Below, in pieces: positions 54,910-64,000 of a stretch of 64,000 nt of DNA (its first letter is position 1; every line of letters begins with the position of its first letter). The notes below the pieces were generated by a model, which did not search any database, was not told where the DNA came from, and saw only the letters and a list, made by a program, of their open reading frames with translations. The DNA is from Gammaproteobacteria bacterium. Lineage in GTDB: Bacteria > Pseudomonadota > Gammaproteobacteria > Eutrophobiales > Eutrophobiaceae. Location: contig OZ244905.1 in NCBI GenBank assembly GCA_965221695.1, positions 1,728,001 through 1,792,000 on the forward strand, written 5' to 3'. Both the position numbers and the translations under genes were made by a program.

Positions 54910-56190
54910 ATGAGGATCCTGGCTGTCGGCGATATACACCTGGGACGCACGCCATCCCGGTTACCGGAAGAACTATCAGCTCGGGCGCGCGAATTGGGTC
55001 CGGTCGGCGCTTGGAAACGCGCAGTAGACGTTGCGATTGATACCGGCGTCAAAGCCGTTTTGTTAGCCGGCGATGTGGTCGAACGGGAAAACGATTTCTT
55101 CGAGGCCTACCGGGAACTGGAGCAGGGTGTCCGGCGACTTACCGAAGCCGGCATTGATGTCATCGGCGTCGCCGGCAACCACGACGTGAAAGCGCTGCCC
55201 CGTCTGGCAAAACACATTCCTGAATTTCGACTCCTGGGCGCCGGGGGGCACTGGGAGTACTGCCGGATCGGCGATAATGCGAATTCGCTCACCCTCTGGG
55301 GATGGTCGTTCCCCCGAAAGGAAGTCCGAACAAGTCCTTTATCCGATCAATCCTTCGCGCGTCAGAGCGGCATTAACCTGGGATTGTTACACTGCGACCG
55401 GGACTCTGTAGACAGTCCTTACGCCCCGGTCAGCAGCCGGGAGTTGCAGCAATCGGGGCTCGACGGCTGGCTGCTGGGACATATCCACAAGCCAGATGGC
55501 TTGTCTGTGGGGTCACTGAGCGGGTATCTCGGCAGCCTCACCGGACTCGATCGCAGCGAAACCGGCTCCCATGGACCCTGGCTTATCGGCATAGACCGGG
55601 GCAAGATTGAATCGGTTGAGCAACTGCCGTTGGCGCCGCTACGCTGGGAGACCGTGGAGGTTGACCTGGAAGGTATTGGCGAACCGGCAGAGGGGAATGA
55701 GCGACTCCTGATTGCCTTGCGTGAACTGGATCGTGAAATCGTAAAGATTGCCGCGGCGAGAGACCCGGTCGTCGCGCCGGATGCGGTCGGGGCGCATATC
55801 ATTTTGCGCGGGCGTACTCGCTTCGGCGCCGTCGCGTATGACCAAATTTCCGGACAGCGCGGAGAGATTGTCTACAGCCCCGACGACCGGGAGTACTTCA
55901 TCGGGCAGGTCAGCGTGAACACCCATCCTGAGATCGACCTGGAAGAACTCGCAAGGCAACTTACCCCGCCGGGATTACTGGCAAGACGCCTGCTCTTGCT
56001 GGATGAGCCGGAAGGCCATCCCGAACGGGACGACCTGGTGGCCAAGGCTCGCCGGCGTTTGCGTGAACAGGGGCAAAAACCTCTCTGGAATGGCCTGGAT
56101 ACCGATGACCCTGACCCGGTCGCCCGCTTGCGGGAAGCCGGGTTACGCGCCCTGGATCAATTACTGGCGCAAGCTGCCGATAAGAGTTAA
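54910..56190 (+). CDS. SbcD/Mre11-like metallophosphoesterase nuclease (YhaO-like)
   Basis: GDIHLG, AGDVVE, GNHD, LLH and LGHIH motifs. Confidence 0.88.
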   Translation: MRILAVGDIHLGRTPSRLPEELSARARELGPVGAWKRAVDVAIDTGVKAVLLAGDVVERENDFFEAYRELEQGVRRLTEAGIDVIGVAGNHDVKALPRLAKHIPEFRLLGAGGHWEYCRIGDNANSLTLWGWSFPRKEVRTSPLSDQSFARQSGINLGLLHCDRDSVDSPYAPVSSRELQQSGLDGWLLGHIHKPDGLSVGSLSGYLGSLTGLDRSETGSHGPWLIGIDRGKIESVEQLPLAPLRWETVEVDLEGIGEPAEGNERLLIALRELDREIVKIAAARDPVVAPDAVGAHIILRGRTRFGAVAYDQISGQRGEIVYSPDDREYFIGQVSVNTHPEIDLEELARQLTPPGLLARRLLLLDEPEGHPERDDLVAKARRRLREQGQKPLWNGLDTDDPDPVARLREAGLRALDQLLAQAADKS

Positions 56191-59100
56191 TGCGACTCAA
56201 GCGTTTACACATCCGAACGCTACCCGGCATCGAACCCGGCTTTACGTTCGAGCCGCCCGACGCCGGTATCAATATCGTGACCGGTCCCAACGCTATCGGC
56301 AAAAGCAGCCTGGCGCGCGCCTTGGGTTATCTCCTGCACACTCAGAAAAACGACCCGGTAGCGCTTTCTCTGGAGGCTGAGTTCGAGGGTGACGAGACTG
56401 CTTGGCGCGTAGTACGCAACGGCAGCCAGATCATCTGGCATCGGGACGGCAGATCCACATCGCCGCCGGCGTTGCCCGGCGCCGGCCAGACTGGGCTGTA
56501 TCGCCTGTCAATGGAAAGCCTGCTGGACAGCGATGACCAGGATCGCGATCTTGCCCGGGAGTTGCGTAACAGCTTGCGCGGCGGTTTTGATCTTGATGCG
56601 CTGCGTACCGAATTGGGCGCTCGCTTTGCGCAAAACGATCAAAAGAACCTGCGCAACGCAGAGAAGGCGTTGCGACAGGCGGAAGCGGAATATGACGCAT
56701 TGGAGCGGCAGGAACGGGAGGAACTGCCCCGTCTTGAGCGTGAGCTCAAGGCCGCGCAGGAAGCGCAGGAAAGATTGAAGCGCCTGCAACATGGACTGGA
56801 CCTGCACAAAGCTATTCAGGCAAAAAAGTCCTGCGAGGAGCAACTTAATGCATATCCACCCGACATGGATCGGCTGCGCGGCGGTGAACGGGATGACCTG
56901 GCGAAGCTGGAACAAAGAGAGAAATCATTACTGGAAAAGCTCAGGGATCAACAGCGCCAGCTGCGCGCGGCCGAAGCGGTGTTGGAACAGACCGGACTTC
57001 AAGATTCAGGCCCCGCTCCGGAGGACATGGACGCGATGGAATCGCGTCTACAATCGCTTGGACAAAAACTGGCGCGACGAAATAATGCACGGGTTGCGCG
57101 AGAGCAGGCTGCTGCCGGTCTGAAACAAGCGCTGGAACCGTTCAATAACGATGGTAAACCGCCCAGGCTGGATGAGGAGGACATCAAACAGGCAGAGGAG
57201 ATCGCAGTACCGCTGATTAAGGAACAATATAAACGGGAAGCGCTGCAACTGAAACTTGACCAGGCCGGTCAACCTCCCGATGAAACCGAAATCAACAAGT
57301 TGTACGAAGCCGGCAGCGCCCTGCGCGAGTGGCTGGCGGCTTCGGCAGGGGAGTCGCAAGTTCAACCGGAATCACCCAATCGTTGGTTGCGAAGCGCATT
57401 TTGGGTTGCCCTGACGGCCAGCGGCCTTGCCGCTGTGCTGGCGTTGGTAGAACAGGCATGGTTAACCTTTTCAGCGCTGATAGTCGCACTGGTAGCTTTG
57501 AGCATAGCGTTATGGGGACTGATGCAACGACAGCGTCCCGTGGCCGGGTCAACTGCCGGCAACGCAAAACAGCGCTTCATCCGAACTGGCTTGAACGAGC
57601 CGCCGGAGTGGACTGCCGCCATAGTAGAAGAATACCAGCGCGCGGAAATCGACAAACGCCACAGTGCCCTGGCGCTGCAAAGGGAACATGCGGCGCAGGC
57701 TGGGAGCCTTTGTGCTGAACTCAAAAAGGTTGAGTCAGACATCACAAGGTTGCACGTGTCAAAACAGGAAGCCGCCGCACGTCTTGGCTTTGACCCGGCA
57801 TTGCCGAGTATCAGCCCCGATATCTTTCTGCAATACTGCCGCCAACTGCTGGAGGCGCAAAGCCGCCACGCTCAGGCAAACGCTGAACTGGCTGAAGTGG
57901 AACGGGACATTGCTGATGACATCGGCTCGGTGCGTGACTTTCTGGCTCCTTGGGTTAGCACAGATGAGGATATCCACCGGTTACAGGCGTCATTTCGGAA
58001 CCTGAAGCGACGCTTTGATGACGCGCAAGGCGCAAGAAAAGACATTACTCACTATAAGCATGAGATTCAGTCATCAGAGGAGGCAATCAAACAAAGTCGC
58101 GCCGATATCGAAGCTGTCTTCACACAATGCAAACTTGAACCGGGCGCCCATATTGAACTTTACCAACGGCTGGAGGGCCTGGAGCAATGGAAGGAAAAAC
58201 GGAAAGATCTTTACGACGCGGAGAATGAGGAGAAACGTATACGATCCCTGCTCTTGTCTCACGCAGATATCATCAGGAATGTCGATGAAGACAAGCTCGC
58301 GGCCTTGGAGACTGAATTTGCCAAGACGGCAGAGCAGGCCGACAAGCACACGGAACTGCTGCGGCAGCAAACTGAAATCACCACACGGCTTGCAGACGCC
58401 GGCAAAGAGCATAAGCTAAGCCAGGCGCGCGCCAGCTTGGACAGCGCCAGAGCGACCTTGCAAGACAAGCGTGAGCAGGCCTGGTTGTATGAAACGACTG
58501 AACTCTTGCTCAACGATGTTGAACAGGCATTCCATAGTGAAAACGAACCGGAAATTCTCAGTCGCGCCCGTAAGCTGTTCCGGAACATCACTGCAAATGC
58601 CTTCGACCTGCAACTGGACAAGGACGACACATTCTTCGCGCGGGACCTCAAACAAGAAGCGCCACGACAGGTGAGCGAACTCTCTTCTGGCACGCGCATG
58701 CAACTGTTGCTCGCGCTGCGCATGGCCTGGCTCGAAGCGCAGGAGCAGGGCGGAGAGACTCTGCCGTTGTTCCTGGACGAAGCGCTGACCACCAGCGATG
58801 AAGAGCGTTTCGCCGAGATGGCGAAGAGCCTTGAACGGCTGGCGTACGCGCAAGAGCGGCAGATATTCTACCTGTCTGCGCGACGGCACGAGCGCGCGCT
58901 ATGGAAGCAGGCTACCGGAAATGAACTGCCAACCATTGATCTTGCCGACGTGCGCTTTCCCCGGCAGGCGCGCGCCTCGCATGAGTATGATATCTCACCA
59001 CCCTCGTCGCTGCCGTCCCCGGAGGGACAAACACCTGAGGATTATGCTTCCGCTCTTGGCGTGCCTCCCTTCAACCCGCACCTGGAGCCCGGCGCGACGC

Positions 59101-59633
59101 ACCTCTTCTACCTGTTGCGTGATAACCTGGATCTCCTGTGCCAGCTAATGGAAAACTGGCGTATCGCCAGTCTGGGCCAGCTTGAAGGCTTGCTCAACAG
59201 CGATGCGGTGTCTGCCGCGATAGCCGACAGCGAACTTCAGAGCCGGCTTCGGCACAGACTCAAGACCGTGCGCGCCTGGATCACTCTATGGCGCCGGGGC
59301 AGGGGTCGCCCCGTGAATCGTATTGCCCTGGAACAGTCAGGCATCGTATCTGAAACATTCATGGATCGCCTCTCGGACCTTGCCGAGACCGTCAACGAAG
59401 AAGGGAAGACGCTGGTGGAAGCGTTACGCGCCGGAAAGGTATCCCGTTTCCAAAGCAGCAAGATTGAAGAACTGGAGCGCTGGCTGGCTGGCGAGGGCTA
59501 CATTGAGCTGGAACCGGTTCTCTCCGCAGACGAGCGCCGGCGCCTGACGCTGCAACAGGTCATGTCCGTTCCCAACGCCGATGTGGAAGACGCCAACCGG
59601 GTCATCACCTGGCTGGAGTCGGCAAGTCCCTGA
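56190..59633 (+). CDS. SMC/Rad50-like ABC ATPase (YhaN/AAA_27 type) with a membrane hairpin and C-terminal extension
   Basis: Walker A GPNAIGKS, long coiled coil, signature LSSGT, Walker B LFLDE; translationally coupled to the nuclease gene. Confidence 0.85.
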   Translation: MRLKRLHIRTLPGIEPGFTFEPPDAGINIVTGPNAIGKSSLARALGYLLHTQKNDPVALSLEAEFEGDETAWRVVRNGSQIIWHRDGRSTSPPALPGAGQTGLYRLSMESLLDSDDQDRDLARELRNSLRGGFDLDALRTELGARFAQNDQKNLRNAEKALRQAEAEYDALERQEREELPRLERELKAAQEAQERLKRLQHGLDLHKAIQAKKSCEEQLNAYPPDMDRLRGGERDDLAKLEQREKSLLEKLRDQQRQLRAAEAVLEQTGLQDSGPAPEDMDAMESRLQSLGQKLARRNNARVAREQAAAGLKQALEPFNNDGKPPRLDEEDIKQAEEIAVPLIKEQYKREALQLKLDQAGQPPDETEINKLYEAGSALREWLAASAGESQVQPESPNRWLRSAFWVALTASGLAAVLALVEQAWLTFSALIVALVALSIALWGLMQRQRPVAGSTAGNAKQRFIRTGLNEPPEWTAAIVEEYQRAEIDKRHSALALQREHAAQAGSLCAELKKVESDITRLHVSKQEAAARLGFDPALPSISPDIFLQYCRQLLEAQSRHAQANAELAEVERDIADDIGSVRDFLAPWVSTDEDIHRLQASFRNLKRRFDDAQGARKDITHYKHEIQSSEEAIKQSRADIEAVFTQCKLEPGAHIELYQRLEGLEQWKEKRKDLYDAENEEKRIRSLLLSHADIIRNVDEDKLAALETEFAKTAEQADKHTELLRQQTEITTRLADAGKEHKLSQARASLDSARATLQDKREQAWLYETTELLLNDVEQAFHSENEPEILSRARKLFRNITANAFDLQLDKDDTFFARDLKQEAPRQVSELSSGTRMQLLLALRMAWLEAQEQGGETLPLFLDEALTTSDEERFAEMAKSLERLAYAQERQIFYLSARRHERALWKQATGNELPTIDLADVRFPRQARASHEYDISPPSSLPSPEGQTPEDYASALGVPPFNPHLEPGATHLFYLLRDNLDLLCQLMENWRIASLGQLEGLLNSDAVSAAIADSELQSRLRHRLKTVRAWITLWRRGRGRPVNRIALEQSGIVSETFMDRLSDLAETVNEEGKTLVEALRAGKVSRFQSSKIEELERWLAGEGYIELEPVLSADERRRLTLQQVMSVPNADVEDANRVITWLESASP

Positions 59634-59722: not shown

Positions 59723-60295
59723 TTATGCAAAAAGAGCTCTCAGGAAGGGCATCGCTTCCACGACGATAATTAATCCAACCATCCATTTTATCACCAGCAT
59801 CTCGCTTTTGAGTTCCTCCAAGTTGGTTCTCATCTCACCTTTGAATCCCTCCATATTGGCGCCCATCTCGCCTCTGAATTCCTCCATATTGGCGTTCATC
59901 TCGCCTCTGAATTCCTCCATGTTGGTTCTCATCTCACCTCTGAATTCCTCCATGTTGGCGCTCATCTCGCCTCTAAATTCCTCCATGTTGGTTCTCATCT
60001 CGCCTCTGAATTCCTCCAAGTTGGTTCTCATCTCGCCTTTGAATTCCTTCATATTGGCTCTGATCTCACCTTTGAATTCTTCCATATTGGCGGCCATCTC
60101 GCCTCTGAATTCCTCCATATTGGCTCTCAGCGACTCCATATCTACTTTTACTGCCAGGATATCTGATTTTGTTGCGAGACTCTGGTTCATCGCGTAATTT
60201 ATCGTGGTTACTATTGCTTCGGCCTGAGTGTCATTAAGTCCTGACCTGACTATGGCTTTGACAGCCTGGTGTGTATCAAAAGTTGCAGTATCCAT
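59723..60295 (-). CDS. DUF1640/CCDC90-like membrane-anchored coiled-coil protein with 11-aa repeats
   Basis: FDTH...V......QAEAIV head, LATKSD neck, C-terminal KWMVGLII transmembrane segment. Confidence 0.8.
   Translation of the reverse strand: MDTATFDTHQAVKAIVRSGLNDTQAEAIVTTINYAMNQSLATKSDILAVKVDMESLRANMEEFRGEMAANMEEFKGEIRANMKEFKGEMRTNLEEFRGEMRTNMEEFRGEMSANMEEFRGEMRTNMEEFRGEMNANMEEFRGEMGANMEGFKGEMRTNLEELKSEMLVIKWMVGLIIVVEAMPFLRALFA
59795..60127 (-). repeat. Coding tandem repeat, about 10 x 33 bp (NMEEFRGEMxx)
   Basis: CATCTC(G/A)CCT(C/T)TGAATTCCTCCA units recur every 33 bp. Confidence 0.92.
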
Positions 60296-60421: not shown

Positions 60422-60742
60422 TCAATACTGTGATTCCGGCATATTCACAACCAGGCCGTCCAGTTCCGGGGTGACTTTGATCTGGCAACTCAACCGGCTG
60501 GTAGATTGTGGGCTCATCACGAAGTCCAGCATTTCCTTCTCCATGGACTGGGCCTCGGGCAGTTTATCAAACCATTTCTGATCTACGTAAACATGACAGG
60601 TGGCGCAACTGCAGGCGCCGCCGCATTCAGCAACGATACCGTCCACCCCGTTGTTAACAGCGGTCTGCATGACAGTCATGCCCTCTTTAGCGTCTACTGT
60701 CGTTTCTGTCCCATCGAATGCAATATAGGTGATTTTCGGCAT
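60422..60742 (-). CDS. 2Fe-2S ferredoxin, adrenodoxin/putidaredoxin type
   Basis: [14 protein letters not shown] and SRLSCQ motifs. Confidence 0.93.
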
Positions 60743-60799: not shown

Positions 60800-61924
60800 T
60801 CAATTCCGAAGCCGTTCAAATTCGGTTCTGGAAATATCAGTTTGGCGGAAGAAGTACTGAAGAAACTGGCCGGTTAACACACTATGTGGAGTTGGGTTCT
60901 CAATATAGTAATTCATGCTGAACCGGCAATTTTGTCTTTTTTCCGATTTCAGGTTACCCAGGCTTACAAATGGTCCTGCCATTAGGCTGAATTCCTCGAA
61001 GGAAAATTTTTTGTGTAGTGGCCAATCGCCTAGCAGATCCAATGCTTGACTGGTATCGAATGCATCACCAACGTAGTCGACGACACTCATACCACGTAAC
61101 TCCTCGTTTCTTTGAATCAGTGTAATGCCGTCCTCTTCCAAATGCATAGTGCCAAGGGGGATGGATTTCCCGCGCAATTTACCCGCGCCGCTAGCGGGAC
61201 GTTCGTATATGCATAATACCAATCCTCCTGCTTTTGTTCTGGTGATTTCATCCTTCAGGATATTCATTTTATAATCAGATTCAGCTAGTTTTTGAGCTTG
61301 CTCAGAAGCTGATTGTTCCAGTTCAGCGCTATGCTTTTTTGCTTTCTCTAAGTTGGCCTCGGACTCGGTTAACTGTTCCCTAAGTTTTTCAAGTTCTTGC
61401 TGTAATTTGTTGTCATCCTTAAGCAAATCCATATCTTTATGAGCTATATCCAATTCCTTGGTTAGTTCAGAAATACTATCTTCTGCTTTGGCCGAGCGTT
61501 GCTTTTCTTTTTCCAGGTCTATTTCGGTTTCAGTGAGTTTGTCTTCCAGTTCTTCCACTTTTTCCCTTAACATTTCGTTGTCAAATTTTTCTTGTTCTGC
61601 GTCTTCTGTATTTTCTTCAAGGTCTTTGAGCCAGCTATCAAGTTGTTTGGAACTGGCAGCCTGTTGTTCAACTTCGCGGGTCAACACGGTCCAAACTTCG
61701 CTTAATTCACGTTGAGTATCAGTTTCGGTGATTAACTGTCCCAATTTGGTGGCTTCGGATAATGACTTTGGCCCACCAAAATTTTCCTCAAGGTCTTCTT
61801 CTTTCTGCTGGTAGTCTTTCAGGAACAGGAGCAACACGAATAGTGTAATGAGCATTAATTCGGCCAGGATGATCCCCATCAGAAAACCGCGACGGCTGGC
61901 GCTTAAGGTATCCGGTGAGGGCAT
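60800..61924 (-). CDS. Single-pass membrane protein with MotB/ExbD-like helix (LAELM), long coiled coil and unknown C-terminal domain
   Basis: SRRGFLMGIILAELMLITLFVLLLFL followed by an E/K-rich heptad stalk; adjacent to a MotA-like gene. Confidence 0.6.
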   Translation of the reverse strand: MPSPDTLSASRRGFLMGIILAELMLITLFVLLLFLKDYQQKEEDLEENFGGPKSLSEATKLGQLITETDTQRELSEVWTVLTREVEQQAASSKQLDSWLKDLEENTEDAEQEKFDNEMLREKVEELEDKLTETEIDLEKEKQRSAKAEDSISELTKELDIAHKDMDLLKDDNKLQQELEKLREQLTESEANLEKAKKHSAELEQSASEQAQKLAESDYKMNILKDEITRTKAGGLVLCIYERPASGAGKLRGKSIPLGTMHLEEDGITLIQRNEELRGMSVVDYVGDAFDTSQALDLLGDWPLHKKFSFEEFSLMAGPFVSLGNLKSEKRQNCRFSMNYYIENPTPHSVLTGQFLQYFFRQTDISRTEFERLRN

Positions 61925-61961
61925 TGTAACAGCAGCGGGAAAATACGGGACAGGAATGTGG

Positions 61962-63515
61962 CTATCGTCGCAACAAGCGCGATAGTATATTGGACCTTTC
62001 AGGGCTCAGGGTATCAAGAGTATTTCTAAGTTCGATCAATTCCGATAAACTACGATTGACCGCACTAGACAAGGCTTCGGTCCTGGTGGACAGTTCCGAG
62101 AGATGCTGGTTGTGATCGGATCCGAGGTTGCGCTGTGTCAAAATCGTCGCCTGTACCATTTCTAGCAATGTCTTGATAGCATCGCGAGCTTCGACAATAG
62201 AATTGACATTATCCATATCCAGATTGGCGATCTGACTATTGCACTCCGTCAAGTATCGCTGTGTGTCTTCCAAGGAGGACGACAGATTTTGCATACAGTC
62301 AACAAAAAGCTTTGTACTCGAATTAATCTGGTCTAACGCAGGTACTATGCGTTGTGCGATGAGTTCCGACGGTATTTCAATTGCCTGAAAACGCTCCATC
62401 AGCGATTTTTCTATCTTTTGGGAAAGGTTTTGTGTTCGGTCGGCAGCAAAGAGACTGGACAGGCGTTGGTGGATGTCAGCAGATATCTGGTCGGTAAGTT
62501 TGCCTACCGTTTCCGACAAACGGGTGAATATCTGGTCAATATGGGAGACAATCAACTCATCAGAAATATCAATAGTATTCAGTTCGTTTGTAAATTTGGT
62601 GATTGACTGAGAAGCGCTGTCAAGTGCTGGAGAGAGTTGGGAACTGACCAGGTCCGAGGGGATGCTGAGAGCATCCGATATTAGTTCATCTAGGCGATTT
62701 ATGTTCACTACCAATTTATTCGTGGCTAATTTTATGCTGGTGTTCATACCGTTCATGGCTTGGCGCGTATTGATTTGTCCTTCTTCAATTGTTTCAGTAA
62801 GGCTTGCAAATATCTGGTCGGTGCGGGTAGTAATCAGGTTAGCCGGGATTTCAATATTCTCGACCTGATTTGCGAATCTCGTGATTGATTGGGAAGCGGT
62901 ATCCAAAACGGGAGACAGTTTGGAACTGAGCAAGTCAGGCGGTATATTCATCATATCCGATACCCGTTTCTCCAATAGATTCGTATTAGTCGCTAGCTTA
63001 TTGGAAGCTGCTTTCACGCTGGTATTCATCTCTTCGAGAGCTAGCCGGGTAGCGAGTTGTCCTTCTTCAACGATATCAGCTGTTTGACGAATTCTGCCTA
63101 TGGTAGCCTCGGCGACTTCAACCAATTCCTCGCGTACCCTATGCTCAATCTGTTCTGATGATTCCCGTCTGAGACACAGCACCCGTAGGAACAATCCCAA
63201 CACAGTAGTAGAAAGACCTATACCCAAATCACCGACAATATGGGTTATAGGCAGTTCGTCTTCAGTAGAAAACCGATACAGAGATACGCCTAGTGTGCAT
63301 ACTGTAAAGATGAAACCCATATAATAGAGGTTGTCAGCCGCCCGTTCGTCTTGGAAGTGTTCGTAAGCCCAAGCCGCCCCTGTATATGCGACTATGAGAG
63401 CGCATAGAACTAAAACCGTGAGCCATGTCGTTGAGTCAAGTGCAATGCGCATAACAACCAGAAGGACAATTCCGGTAATAATGAACCCGGCGAATAACAC
63501 TTTATTGTCTATCAC
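61962..63515 (-). CDS. MotA/TolQ/ExbB-like membrane protein with a long repetitive helical tail (ZorA-like architecture)
   Basis: Four N-terminal hydrophobic helices including YYMGFIFTVCTL and DLGIGLSTTVLGLFLR; about 400-aa soluble helical tail. Confidence 0.6.
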   Translation of the reverse strand: MIDNKVLFAGFIITGIVLLVVMRIALDSTTWLTVLVLCALIVAYTGAAWAYEHFQDERAADNLYYMGFIFTVCTLGVSLYRFSTEDELPITHIVGDLGIGLSTTVLGLFLRVLCLRRESSEQIEHRVREELVEVAEATIGRIRQTADIVEEGQLATRLALEEMNTSVKAASNKLATNTNLLEKRVSDMMNIPPDLLSSKLSPVLDTASQSITRFANQVENIEIPANLITTRTDQIFASLTETIEEGQINTRQAMNGMNTSIKLATNKLVVNINRLDELISDALSIPSDLVSSQLSPALDSASQSITKFTNELNTIDISDELIVSHIDQIFTRLSETVGKLTDQISADIHQRLSSLFAADRTQNLSQKIEKSLMERFQAIEIPSELIAQRIVPALDQINSSTKLFVDCMQNLSSSLEDTQRYLTECNSQIANLDMDNVNSIVEARDAIKTLLEMVQATILTQRNLGSDHNQHLSELSTRTEALSSAVNRSLSELIELRNTLDTLSPERSNILSRLLRR

Positions 63516-63516
63516 T

Positions 63517-64000
63517 TCAGTGTACGCCAGTTATCTTGGTAACGGAGTTCACGTAACCGCCACAGACTCCCAAGTATTCGTCCCACCAGGAGACAAGCGC
63601 ATTATCCTGAGTGGATCGCTCCGGACGTGTGGGCATAAGGATGTCGATTTGAAAACCATCCAGCATAGGGCATTGATCGTGAAAGCGTCTTCGATTGGAT
63701 TGGTAAACCGTTAGCCAGTCCGGATTGTATTGCGATAACGTCTCTGAGTATTCAATGAGGTCTGATACCAACAAGATGTATTGGGATGAGTCATCCCGTT
63801 CCCGGTCCGCAGCAACCCAGCCTAGAGATGCTACAATAGGAGATTCATTACGTGTTCCCTGTAACTGTTCCAGTGCATTGTTCAAAAACTCTTTAAAACT
63901 GGCATCTTTCAAGCGTTGAAATATAGGCGTATCCTGAAGCTCCTTTCCTGGCTTACACAAATGAAAAATTGGTGGTTGAGCAATCGATTCCACGGTGTAA
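63517..64000 (-). CDS. 3' part of a gene cut by the window edge; vWA-like alpha/beta domain
   Basis: Frame is open to the edge; ESPIVASL and ILLVSDLIE motifs; its stop lies 1 bp from the next start. Confidence 0.55.
   Translation of the reverse strand, partial: YTVESIAQPPIFHLCKPGKELQDTPIFQRLKDASFKEFLNNALEQLQGTRNESPIVASLGWVAADRERDDSSQYILLVSDLIEYSETLSQYNPDWLTVYQSNRRRFHDQCPMLDGFQIDILMPTRPERSTQDNALVSWWDEYLGVCGGYVNSVTKITGVH

Follow-up and report, generated by a model that had tools for sequence, protein, structure and literature searches.

Flagella, gliding, Ton/Tol transport and Zorya immunity are all powered by ion-driven 5:2 motors, and how broadly this design has been reused is a question on which a group of genes at the end of a 64,000-nucleotide stretch of DNA from a Gammaproteobacteria bacterium (contig OZ244905.1, positions 1,728,001 to 1,792,000; the window hereafter) bears: do these genes encode a further, very divergent motor, and what might it serve? 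A first-pass annotation, made from the letters of the window, had described three tightly linked minus-strand genes in AT-rich DNA as a non-canonical MotAB/Zorya-like stator operon with a partner similar to von Willebrand factor A (vWA) proteins. Our analysis, which was extended past the window end at position 64000 in the 3.54-Mb single-contig source genome, recovered the open reading frames (ORFs), the gaps of 37 bp (P4/P3) and 1 bp (P3/P2) and the AT-richness as they had been given, while the unit itself consists of four genes rather than three: reading on past the boundary completed the upstream gene, P2, to 251 amino acids and revealed a fourth gene, P1 (491 amino acids), which is co-oriented with P2, 8 bp further upstream and outside the window. 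The P1-P2-P3-P4 cassette is a self-contained, horizontally mobile four-gene envelope module, of which the window holds the downstream three-quarters. It is likely to include a motor, with P3 and P4 together probably representing a stator pair as judged from their sequences, and we favour, at a probability of roughly 0.55, the overall reading that the cassette is a Zorya-like sensor-effector built on a divergent P3-P4 stator.

The evidence for a coherent unit comes from its conservation. A word-based search yielded 29 relatives of P3, whose alignment contained the near-invariant motif DNLYY[ML]GF, and a scan for this motif in one genome per species (about 185,600 species genomes) returned 276 matching stretches, 252 of which were confirmed as relatives; the best 80 loci of these 252 relatives, together with the window's own, make up the 81 loci to which the locus counts given here refer. 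When all plus-strand ORFs of the 81 loci were searched with hidden Markov models (HMMs) built from the cassette families, P1, P2, P3 and P4 were found in one order and on one strand in 79 loci, both exceptions (L026 and L069) being truncated by contig ends, and P4 was present immediately after P3 in 80. The genes first noted as linked are conserved together in a unit that includes P1, and the flanking genes vary between loci. The kept loci span Hyphomicrobiales, Gammaproteobacteria, Acidobacteriota, Latescibacterota, Flavobacteriaceae, Desulfobacterota, Dehalococcoidia and a Saccharibacteria metagenome-assembled genome. Sampling within the class recovered the cassette in 2 of 300 genomes, one of which was the window's own, and it was not found in the single other sampled genome of the window's family. 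Two loci have unusual gene structures: at L041 (6941-9322) P3 and P4 occupy one 793-aa open frame, which may be a fusion or a sequencing artefact, and at L030 (6956-9964) P3 is 1002 aa long and P4 follows about 900 bp further downstream. The GC content of the cassette DNA in the window genome is 0.45, compared to 0.544 for window positions 1-59600; the low-GC stretch is about 7 kb long, and neither a tRNA nor attachment-type repeats were found at its ends. Promoter and terminator scans at the locus gave no more than the shuffle expectation.

P3 is predicted to contain four transmembrane (TM) helices within residues 1-116, followed by a helical tail of about 400 residues; hydropathy cores were found at residues 6-24, 32-50 and 92-116, while TM3 (62-80) lay under the threshold used. 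The helices and motifs quoted in the first-pass annotation are present in the P3 and P4 translations and go beyond chance: their key residues proved to be invariant across 45 non-redundant members, namely DNLYY-GF-FT, G98, T104, G107 and R111 in P3 and G13, G17, A21, E22, F29 and L32 in P4. Candidate residues of a channel hairpin in P3 are G67 and T71 in TM3 and G98, T104, G107 and R111 in TM4. The eight PF01618 (MotA/ExbB/TolQ) paralogues of the window genome served as the comparison set. With a profile of 20 sequences, hhalign placed P3 residues 65-111 without gaps on residues 140-186 of a TolQ-like protein (probability 21.8%, pairwise P 1e-3), a register that pairs G67, T71, A100, T104 and G107 of P3 with G142, T146, A175, T179 and G182; the first four of these positions are conserved in all eight paralogues and G182 in six, and residue 100 of the window's own P3 is Gly rather than the Ala of its family. 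Similar to MotA, ExbB and TolQ, P3 thus carries G...T and A...T..G on consecutive TM helices with the two Thr 33 residues apart, has a partner whose single TM helix bears an acidic residue, and shows a predicted in-out-in topology that agrees with TolQ TM2/TM3 and a subsequent cytoplasmic C-terminus. A conservation-overlap score ranked the hhalign register best of 16,461 ungapped placements, with a z of 7.9 that is not an independent probability, since the register was first found by hhalign on related data, the placements overlap and TM composition is biased. Moreover, PF01618 was the only channel family that recurred among P3 members (5 of 45 at E<=1, best E 8e-4), the P3 of L042 scoring 16.3 bits against a cut-off of 22.9 bits. 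The P3 of L058 matched the ZorA_4 model NF033917 at 5e-8 (residues 87-291) and the ZorA2 model PDLC00637 over residues 45-146, and an Atlas lead for P3 (0.89) pointed to a cluster with PF01618 in 13% of its members. Taken at the level of sequence, these results are consistent with an only remote homology of P3 to MotA/ExbB/TolQ: the consistent register and the few sub-threshold PF01618 and ZorA matches uphold the likeness first proposed, which is statistically weak.

The tail of P3 beyond residue 116 gave helical or apolipoprotein-like matches only, in line with the ZorA-like layout that had been described for it. It contains an internal duplication (54% identity over 95 aa, E 2e-33) with a DNA repeat spacing of 327 nt, which is an insertion relative to shorter homologues and makes the tail longer than that of most family members. 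The tail also matched methyl-accepting chemotaxis protein chains in the PDB profile search, and in two public plasmid records (H12 and H13) the P3 homologue bears the label 'methyl-accepting chemotaxis protein', an error for which the helical tail is probably responsible. A match of the full-length P3 profile to 8vvn_C, a MotA/TolQ/ExbB-domain protein (E 4.5e-6), was rejected as evidence for a channel, as it was lost with a profile of the TM region and had therefore been driven by the helical tail.

The partner, P4, begins with a short N-terminus and a single TM helix, continues as a long helical stalk and closes with a two-Cys domain at its C-terminus. Hydropathy identified a single TM core at residues 17-35 and, together with charge, predicts a cytoplasmic N-terminus with the remainder of the protein outside; weak coiled-coil-type matches cover residues 60-230. 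The TM helix follows the pattern G...G...AE......F..L across 79 sequences, and its Glu (Glu22 in the window), which had been aligned at first sight with the essential Asp of MotB and ZorB, was found in 79 of 79 and was never replaced by Asp. P4 shares the single N-terminal TM helix with MotB, ExbD, TolR and ZorB, whereas its invariant acidic residue is Glu instead of Asp; to our knowledge this departs from every described B subunit. Window P4 holds exactly two Cys, both in its C-terminal part. By their C-terminal parts the 79 sequences fall into an OmpA-like class of 56 (signature GHTDEQP ... ADNAGLGLARA ... RRRIEIR), a two-Cys class of 19 that includes the window (GTE.P.CW ... CRFFVR.FD) and 4 unclassified sequences. 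Since the two forms have no profile similarity (hhalign probability 0.17%), they reflect a domain swap and not divergence, and the two-Cys domain is indeed not OmpA-like; that of the window had no match to OmpA or any other Pfam family and no Atlas lead of at least 0.85. In contrast to MotB and ZorB, the OmpA-like PF00691 domain is hence missing from window P4, while it is present by motif in the 56 relatives. OmpA-type members scored 28.9 bits (L017) and 28.4 bits (L031) against the Pfam OmpA cut-off of 27.2, and relatives of this type weakly matched the MotB model NF006508, TssL, ZorB1 (1.3e-5) and ZorB2 (8.5e-6); window P4 itself gave just a tail-type weak match in the ZorB searches. These matches of typical relatives support the MotB/ZorB-like architecture that the layout of P4 had first suggested. 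Matches of P4 to LmuB, JetC and SMC were judged to be coiled-coil noise.

Several results weigh against P3 being the A subunit of such a motor. Window P3 did not match PF01618, whose curated cut-off was reached by no member of the family, and it matched no MotA/ExbB or ZorA model in Pfam, NCBIfam or PADLOC, the relatives providing ZorA/ZorB matches that were sub-threshold only. Deeper P3 profiles (45 sequences) kept the same register at an hhalign probability of 3-4%, and the z value discussed above lacks independence. A profile of the P3 TM region searched against 177,635 PDB sequences returned no MotA, ExbB or ZorA chain and 2 rows at E<=10, and the single window P3 sequence found no solved A subunit in PDB. 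In the window genome the ZorA_4 model matched an ordinary MotA/ExbB paralogue and not P3; a ZorA_4 search of 301 genomes gave no genome above the cut-off and only a heterogeneous collection of loci. Both PDB rows include tag sequences of the ENLYF type and appear to be artefacts, the invariant DNLYY motif being a search trap that produces spurious matches to such tags in PDB chains. A co-fold of four P3(1-150) and two P4(1-60) chains, which is not the native 5:2 composition, gave a score of 0.12 and a mark of 0.32 and speaks neither for nor against binding. The lack of a library model at threshold for P3, the failure of the TM-region profile to find a solved motor, the drop in hhalign probability as the profile deepens and a Glu rather than the Asp of the B subunits known to us would all fit a cassette that holds no rotary motor, in which P3 is an unrelated 4-TM coiled-coil protein with convergent G/T motifs and P4 a TM-anchored wall tether, all four proteins making up a static scaffold or a sensor of stress that links the inner membrane to the cell wall. 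Packed TM helices often contain motifs of small residues and Thr. We nevertheless consider such a scaffold distinctly improbable, because five invariant P3 residues fall on five conserved MotA/ExbB/TolQ positions with identical spacing in a single best register, because a passive anchor would hardly account for an invariant charged residue buried in the single-pass P4 TM helix (79 of 79), and because the order of A before B, the tightly coupled genes, the OmpA-type domain and the cytoplasmic tail together reproduce the ZorAB layout.

The gene upstream of the putative stator pair encodes P2, a protein whose N-terminus is polybasic and is followed by a single TM helix and a domain predicted to be periplasmic and of vWA fold; its periplasmic location is suggested by the first two of these features together with an invariant Cys pair. 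The predicted structure (predicted local distance difference test, pLDDT, 89.9; predicted template modelling score 0.83) had mostly vWA-type domains as its top Foldseek matches, so that P2, according to this confident model, has the vWA fold that had been suspected from its SPI and VSD motifs. Residues resembling a metal ion-dependent adhesion site (MIDAS) are D59-x-T61 after strand 1, S144 (SPI) before a helix and S170-D171 after strand 4; S144, S170 and D171 are invariant, while the first motif is incomplete, its third position not being conserved. BatB (3ibs) and a Bacteroides fragilis aerotolerance-related membrane protein (4jdu) were among the top matches, and like P2 they are TM-anchored vWA proteins; P2 differs from BatA/BatB in that it matches no family at the sequence level (none in Pfam at E<=0.01), has a MIDAS-like set that is incomplete and carries the invariant Cys pair. 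Bat operons contain MoxR, DUF58 and TPR partners, none of which are found at the cassette locus.

TM-tethered vWA proteins that are syntenic with TolQ(R)-like motor genes, of which two families are distinguished, have been put forward as a novel kind of force transducer (PMC12204202, 2025, section 8). P2 resembles them as an inner-membrane-anchored periplasmic vWA protein beside 5:2-type motor genes, and is encoded directly ahead of these. The cassette could accordingly be a Tol/Ton-kind machine for envelope force transduction or maintenance, in which a motor that runs on proton-motive force drives P2 or P1 in periplasmic work such as tethering, remodelling or transport, and not an immune system. 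Such a role would suit the peptidoglycan anchoring of P4 (OmpA-like, by motif) in 56 of 79 relatives, the PBP1A gene upstream of the cassette in plasmid pRL11, the SH3_3 wall-binding proteins in four flanks and the envelope housekeeping neighbours at several loci (LpxB, outer membrane protein beta-barrel genes). However, P2 shares the hallmarks of neither family. The TonB-like vWA transducers have an SHLS/His motif and a long Pro-rich linker, whereas an SHLS-like motif was found in none of 43 P2 sequences and the linker between the TM end and the vWA Cys measures 11-21 residues, too short for spanning the periplasm. The transpore-helix vWA proteins have an Asp-bearing TolR-like helix and no separate tolR/exbD, whereas the P2 TM helix holds no conserved Asp, Glu or His (Asp or Glu in or edging the helix in only 5 of 43) and 80 of the 81 loci contain P4 as a separate B-like gene. 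The cassette motor would moreover be far more divergent than those of the systems described in PMC12204202, with a ZorA-like tail and P1 always present, and a long cytoplasmic tail is, of the motors described so far, a feature of Zorya. Finally, being rare, patchy, AT-rich and plasmid-borne, the cassette is ill-suited to a housekeeping envelope function, and we regard a force-transducing machine as unlikely.

The protein encoded first in the cassette, P1, is a conserved 4-TM protein whose structure, predicted with confidence (pLDDT 87.3), is all-helical and gave no specific structural match. Its invariant polar residues in or near the membrane are E170, N174, N198, N243, H248 and R250, and its predicted cytoplasmic part contains the conserved sequence DPYPGY ... 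YREAN. At least 120 relatives were found; most of them go by the name of 'hypothetical', 'membrane' or 'transmembrane' protein, a few have automatic labels of various kinds, and no Pfam domain occurred among the relatives listed; window P1 had no Pfam family at E<=0.01, and outside this family P1 is without recognisable relative. A match of P1 to LeoBC (E 6e-6) was judged to be coiled-coil noise.

The comparison with Zorya gives the favoured reading its shape. Like ZorA, P3 combines a compact TM domain with a very long cytoplasmic helical tail, and for S. kujiense ZorA of type II a rod at residues 110-378 that comes after a short TM domain is reported in PMC11890865, which describes Zorya types I-III and no others. 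P4 resembles ZorB in its single TM helix bearing an acidic residue, in its stalk on the periplasmic side and in the OmpA-like peptidoglycan-binding domain that 56 of 79 relatives carry; the A-then-B gene order, the patchy distribution and the defence or mobile genes nearby are likewise shared. In contrast to Zorya, no ZorA/ZorB model was matched at threshold (a relative scoring, for example, 32 bits against the 500 of NF033917), Glu replaces Asp in all P4 sequences, and window P4 ends in a two-Cys rather than an OmpA-like domain. The models of ZorC/D, ZorE, ZorF (DUF3348) and ZorG (DUF2894), the accessory proteins by which PMC11890865 defines the Zorya types, were unmatched, P1 and P2 being encoded upstream of the A-B pair instead; neither of these two matched a PADLOC model of known Zorya accessory genes, and annotation of the downstream genes agrees with the initial view that no flagellar, TonB/TolA or ZorC/D/E genes follow the cassette. 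The distance from PF01618 motors is similar: P3 stays below the Pfam cut-off throughout, P4 has Glu rather than Asp, and no flagellar, TonB or TolA genes lie near the cassette. MotA has a large cytoplasmic domain between TM2 and TM3, which P3 lacks. Scans of the window's four proteins against Pfam, NCBIfam and PADLOC gave no MotA/ExbB, ZorA/B, OmpA or vWA match, their only library matches being coiled-coil and apolipoprotein-type noise.

According to the favoured Zorya-like reading, P3 and P4 would, as their signatures and architecture suggest, form a very divergent MotAB/TolQR/ZorAB-type ion-driven 5:2 stator unit. P3 would contribute the TM3-TM4 hairpin, with T71 and T104 lining the ion path, and a long cytoplasmic tail as in ZorA, and P4 the transpore helix, with Glu22 as ion carrier in place of Asp; a Thr ring around the B-subunit Asp has been described as a conserved essential interaction of 5:2 motors (PMC12204202, section 8). 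The P4 stalk would end in an anchor, which may be an OmpA-like peptidoglycan-binding domain in most relatives and the two-Cys domain in the window. P2 may present its vWA protein-interaction domain at the periplasmic face of the inner membrane, 11-21 residues from the TM helix, and P2 and the P4 C-terminal domain would both act in the periplasm. The cytoplasmic helical bundle of P1 is predicted to sit on the same side as the P3 tail, where the two could meet. We infer solely from the genomic context that the cassette has an anti-phage or envelope-sensing role, in which it would detect envelope perturbation or incoming foreign DNA (phage or plasmid) and pass the signal to P1 by way of the P3 tail; a neighbouring secreted or periplasmic nuclease may work together with it at roughly one locus in four.

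Plasmids and neighbouring defence or mobile genes recur in this context. The cassette occurs in 24 plasmid records, 11 of them predicted to be conjugative, where it is annotated as hypothetical proteins and 'OmpA family protein'. Among 123 flanking ORFs from 32 diverse loci we found integrases, recombinases and transposases as well as the defence genes GmrSD, an Mrr-helicase fusion, BsuBI/Eco57I restriction-modification, Shedu SduA, HSDR_N, T5orf172 with ResIII, and PIN, the list being a raw tally; housekeeping genes were present as well. Genes for a signal-peptide-bearing SNase (PF00565) or Endonuclease I (PF04231) were present in the flanks of 19 of the 81 loci, on either strand, often 1-300 bp and in several cases 1-11 bp from the cassette; in plasmid pRL11 of Rhizobium johnstonii 3841 a 'thermonuclease family protein' gene abuts P4. 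The nuclease could be a fifth component present at only some loci, or its proximity may stem from a mobile-element context that it has in common with the cassette. Arguments against an immune role are the absence of the nuclease from 62 of 81 loci including the window's, the housekeeping genes in many flanks (LpxB, LytB, ManC, DHDPS, PanE), the absence of a cassette relative from all 50,697 phage records and its presence in only one of about 2.9 million viral contigs, and the fact that no PADLOC model matched P1 or P2 in six of six proteins scanned for each. The plasmid records with their 11 predicted conjugative members, the thermonuclease gene abutting P4 in pRL11 (MOBQ, MPF_T), the DUF2274, PRiA4_ORF3 and serine recombinase genes in some flanks and the SNase or Endonuclease I genes could instead point to an accessory of a plasmid or integrative element that serves DNA transfer, for example by entry exclusion or by processing transferred or taken-up DNA in the periplasm with the adjacent thermonuclease, and not immunity. 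We consider this very improbable, since most loci, including the window's, are chromosomal without transfer genes in the flanks examined, and since the nuclease is missing from 62 of the 81 loci; this explanation also overlaps with a defence against incoming DNA, from which it is hard to separate by sequence alone. The positions of the cassette parts, of their neighbours in the window genome and of flank nucleases are given in Table 1.

Table 1. Positions of cassette features, neighbouring genes and flank nucleases (window coordinates unless a locus is named).
Feature	Position	Strand	Remarks
P4, 374 aa	60800..61924	-	ORF; B-subunit-like
P4 TM helix, residues 13-35	61820..61888	-	invariant columns; Glu22 codon GAA at 61859-61861
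P4 C-terminal two-Cys domain, residues 235-374	60803..61222	-	Cys238, Cys333
P3, 517 aa	61962..63515	-	ORF; A-subunit-like
P3 proposed channel hairpin, residues 61-111	63183..63335	-	T71 codon 63303-63305, T104 codon 63204-63206
P3 tail internal duplication, residues 149-243 and 243-337	62505..63071	-	blastp self-comparison
P2, C-terminal 160 residues of 251 aa	63517..64000	-	gene runs to window-equivalent 64272
wHTH and 106-aa genes	L002 7288-7989; window-equivalent 66288-66989	-	just upstream of P1, inside the low-GC stretch
2Fe-2S ferredoxin	60422-60742		adjoins the 190-aa repeat protein
190-aa protein	59723-60295	-	nine tandem 33-nt (11-aa) NMEEFRGEMR-type repeats, C-terminal hydrophobic helix
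SbcCD-like pair	54910-59633	+	426-aa calcineurin-like phosphoesterase, overlapping 1147-aa SMC/SbcC-type ATPase
Flank nucleases	L015 9323-10036; L020 9416-10072; L075 9112-9927; L086 3837-4649		and others
Flank nucleases	L087 3973-4665; L070 9389-10210; L085 3397-4191; L113 9163-9906		L113 is pRL11

In the window, P4 is followed downstream by genes for a 2Fe-2S ferredoxin and a repeat protein with a Pfam CCDC90-like match (1.1e-15), and by a convergent SbcCD-like pair. The ferredoxin and the repeat protein were found downstream of the cassette elsewhere only in its closest relative, L011. On the other side lie the genes for a winged helix-turn-helix (wHTH) protein of 122 aa (HVO_A0114/MarR type, 3e-17) and a 106-aa protein without a family, which may be a regulator or a toxin-antitoxin-like pair and which among the 81 loci occur only at that of the window. 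These four genes are not part of the cassette. The SbcCD-like pair may represent a second defence-type system at the island edge; its ATPase has hydrophobic helices in mid-protein and weak PADLOC matches to mad3 (2.3e-10) and LmuB (5.6e-8), and a homologue of its phosphoesterase is also located near the cassette in L051 (E 8e-21).

A search of the literature found no description of this cassette, with the limit that supplementary gene lists, which lay outside the search, could hold relevant entries. We place it, with its motor identity likely, among modules of the 5:2 motor kind; should that reading not hold, what remains is a membrane cassette that is conserved but uncharacterised. The models searched in Pfam, NCBIfam and PADLOC do not reach a family this divergent. 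A bolder and doubtful possibility is that the cassette represents a fourth, unrecognised kind of Zorya-like immune motor, with a Glu-based 5:2 stator held to the wall by an OmpA-like or a novel two-Cys domain, a periplasmic vWA co-sensor that would help it to sense the entry of phage or plasmid DNA, and a membrane effector, P1, that the long rotating tail would activate in place of soluble nucleases; in some lineages this motor would be joined by a periplasmic nuclease that degrades DNA ahead of its arrival in the cytoplasm. Because the cassette is small, self-contained and carried on a plasmid of the genetically tractable R. johnstonii 3841, both the motor hypothesis and the function are directly testable. 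If the motor reading is true, the 5:2 design would be extended by the use of Glu for Asp, by interchangeable wall-anchor domains and by two obligatory membrane partners, and if the function is defence, the cassette would exemplify immunity that operates at the inner membrane or outside it.

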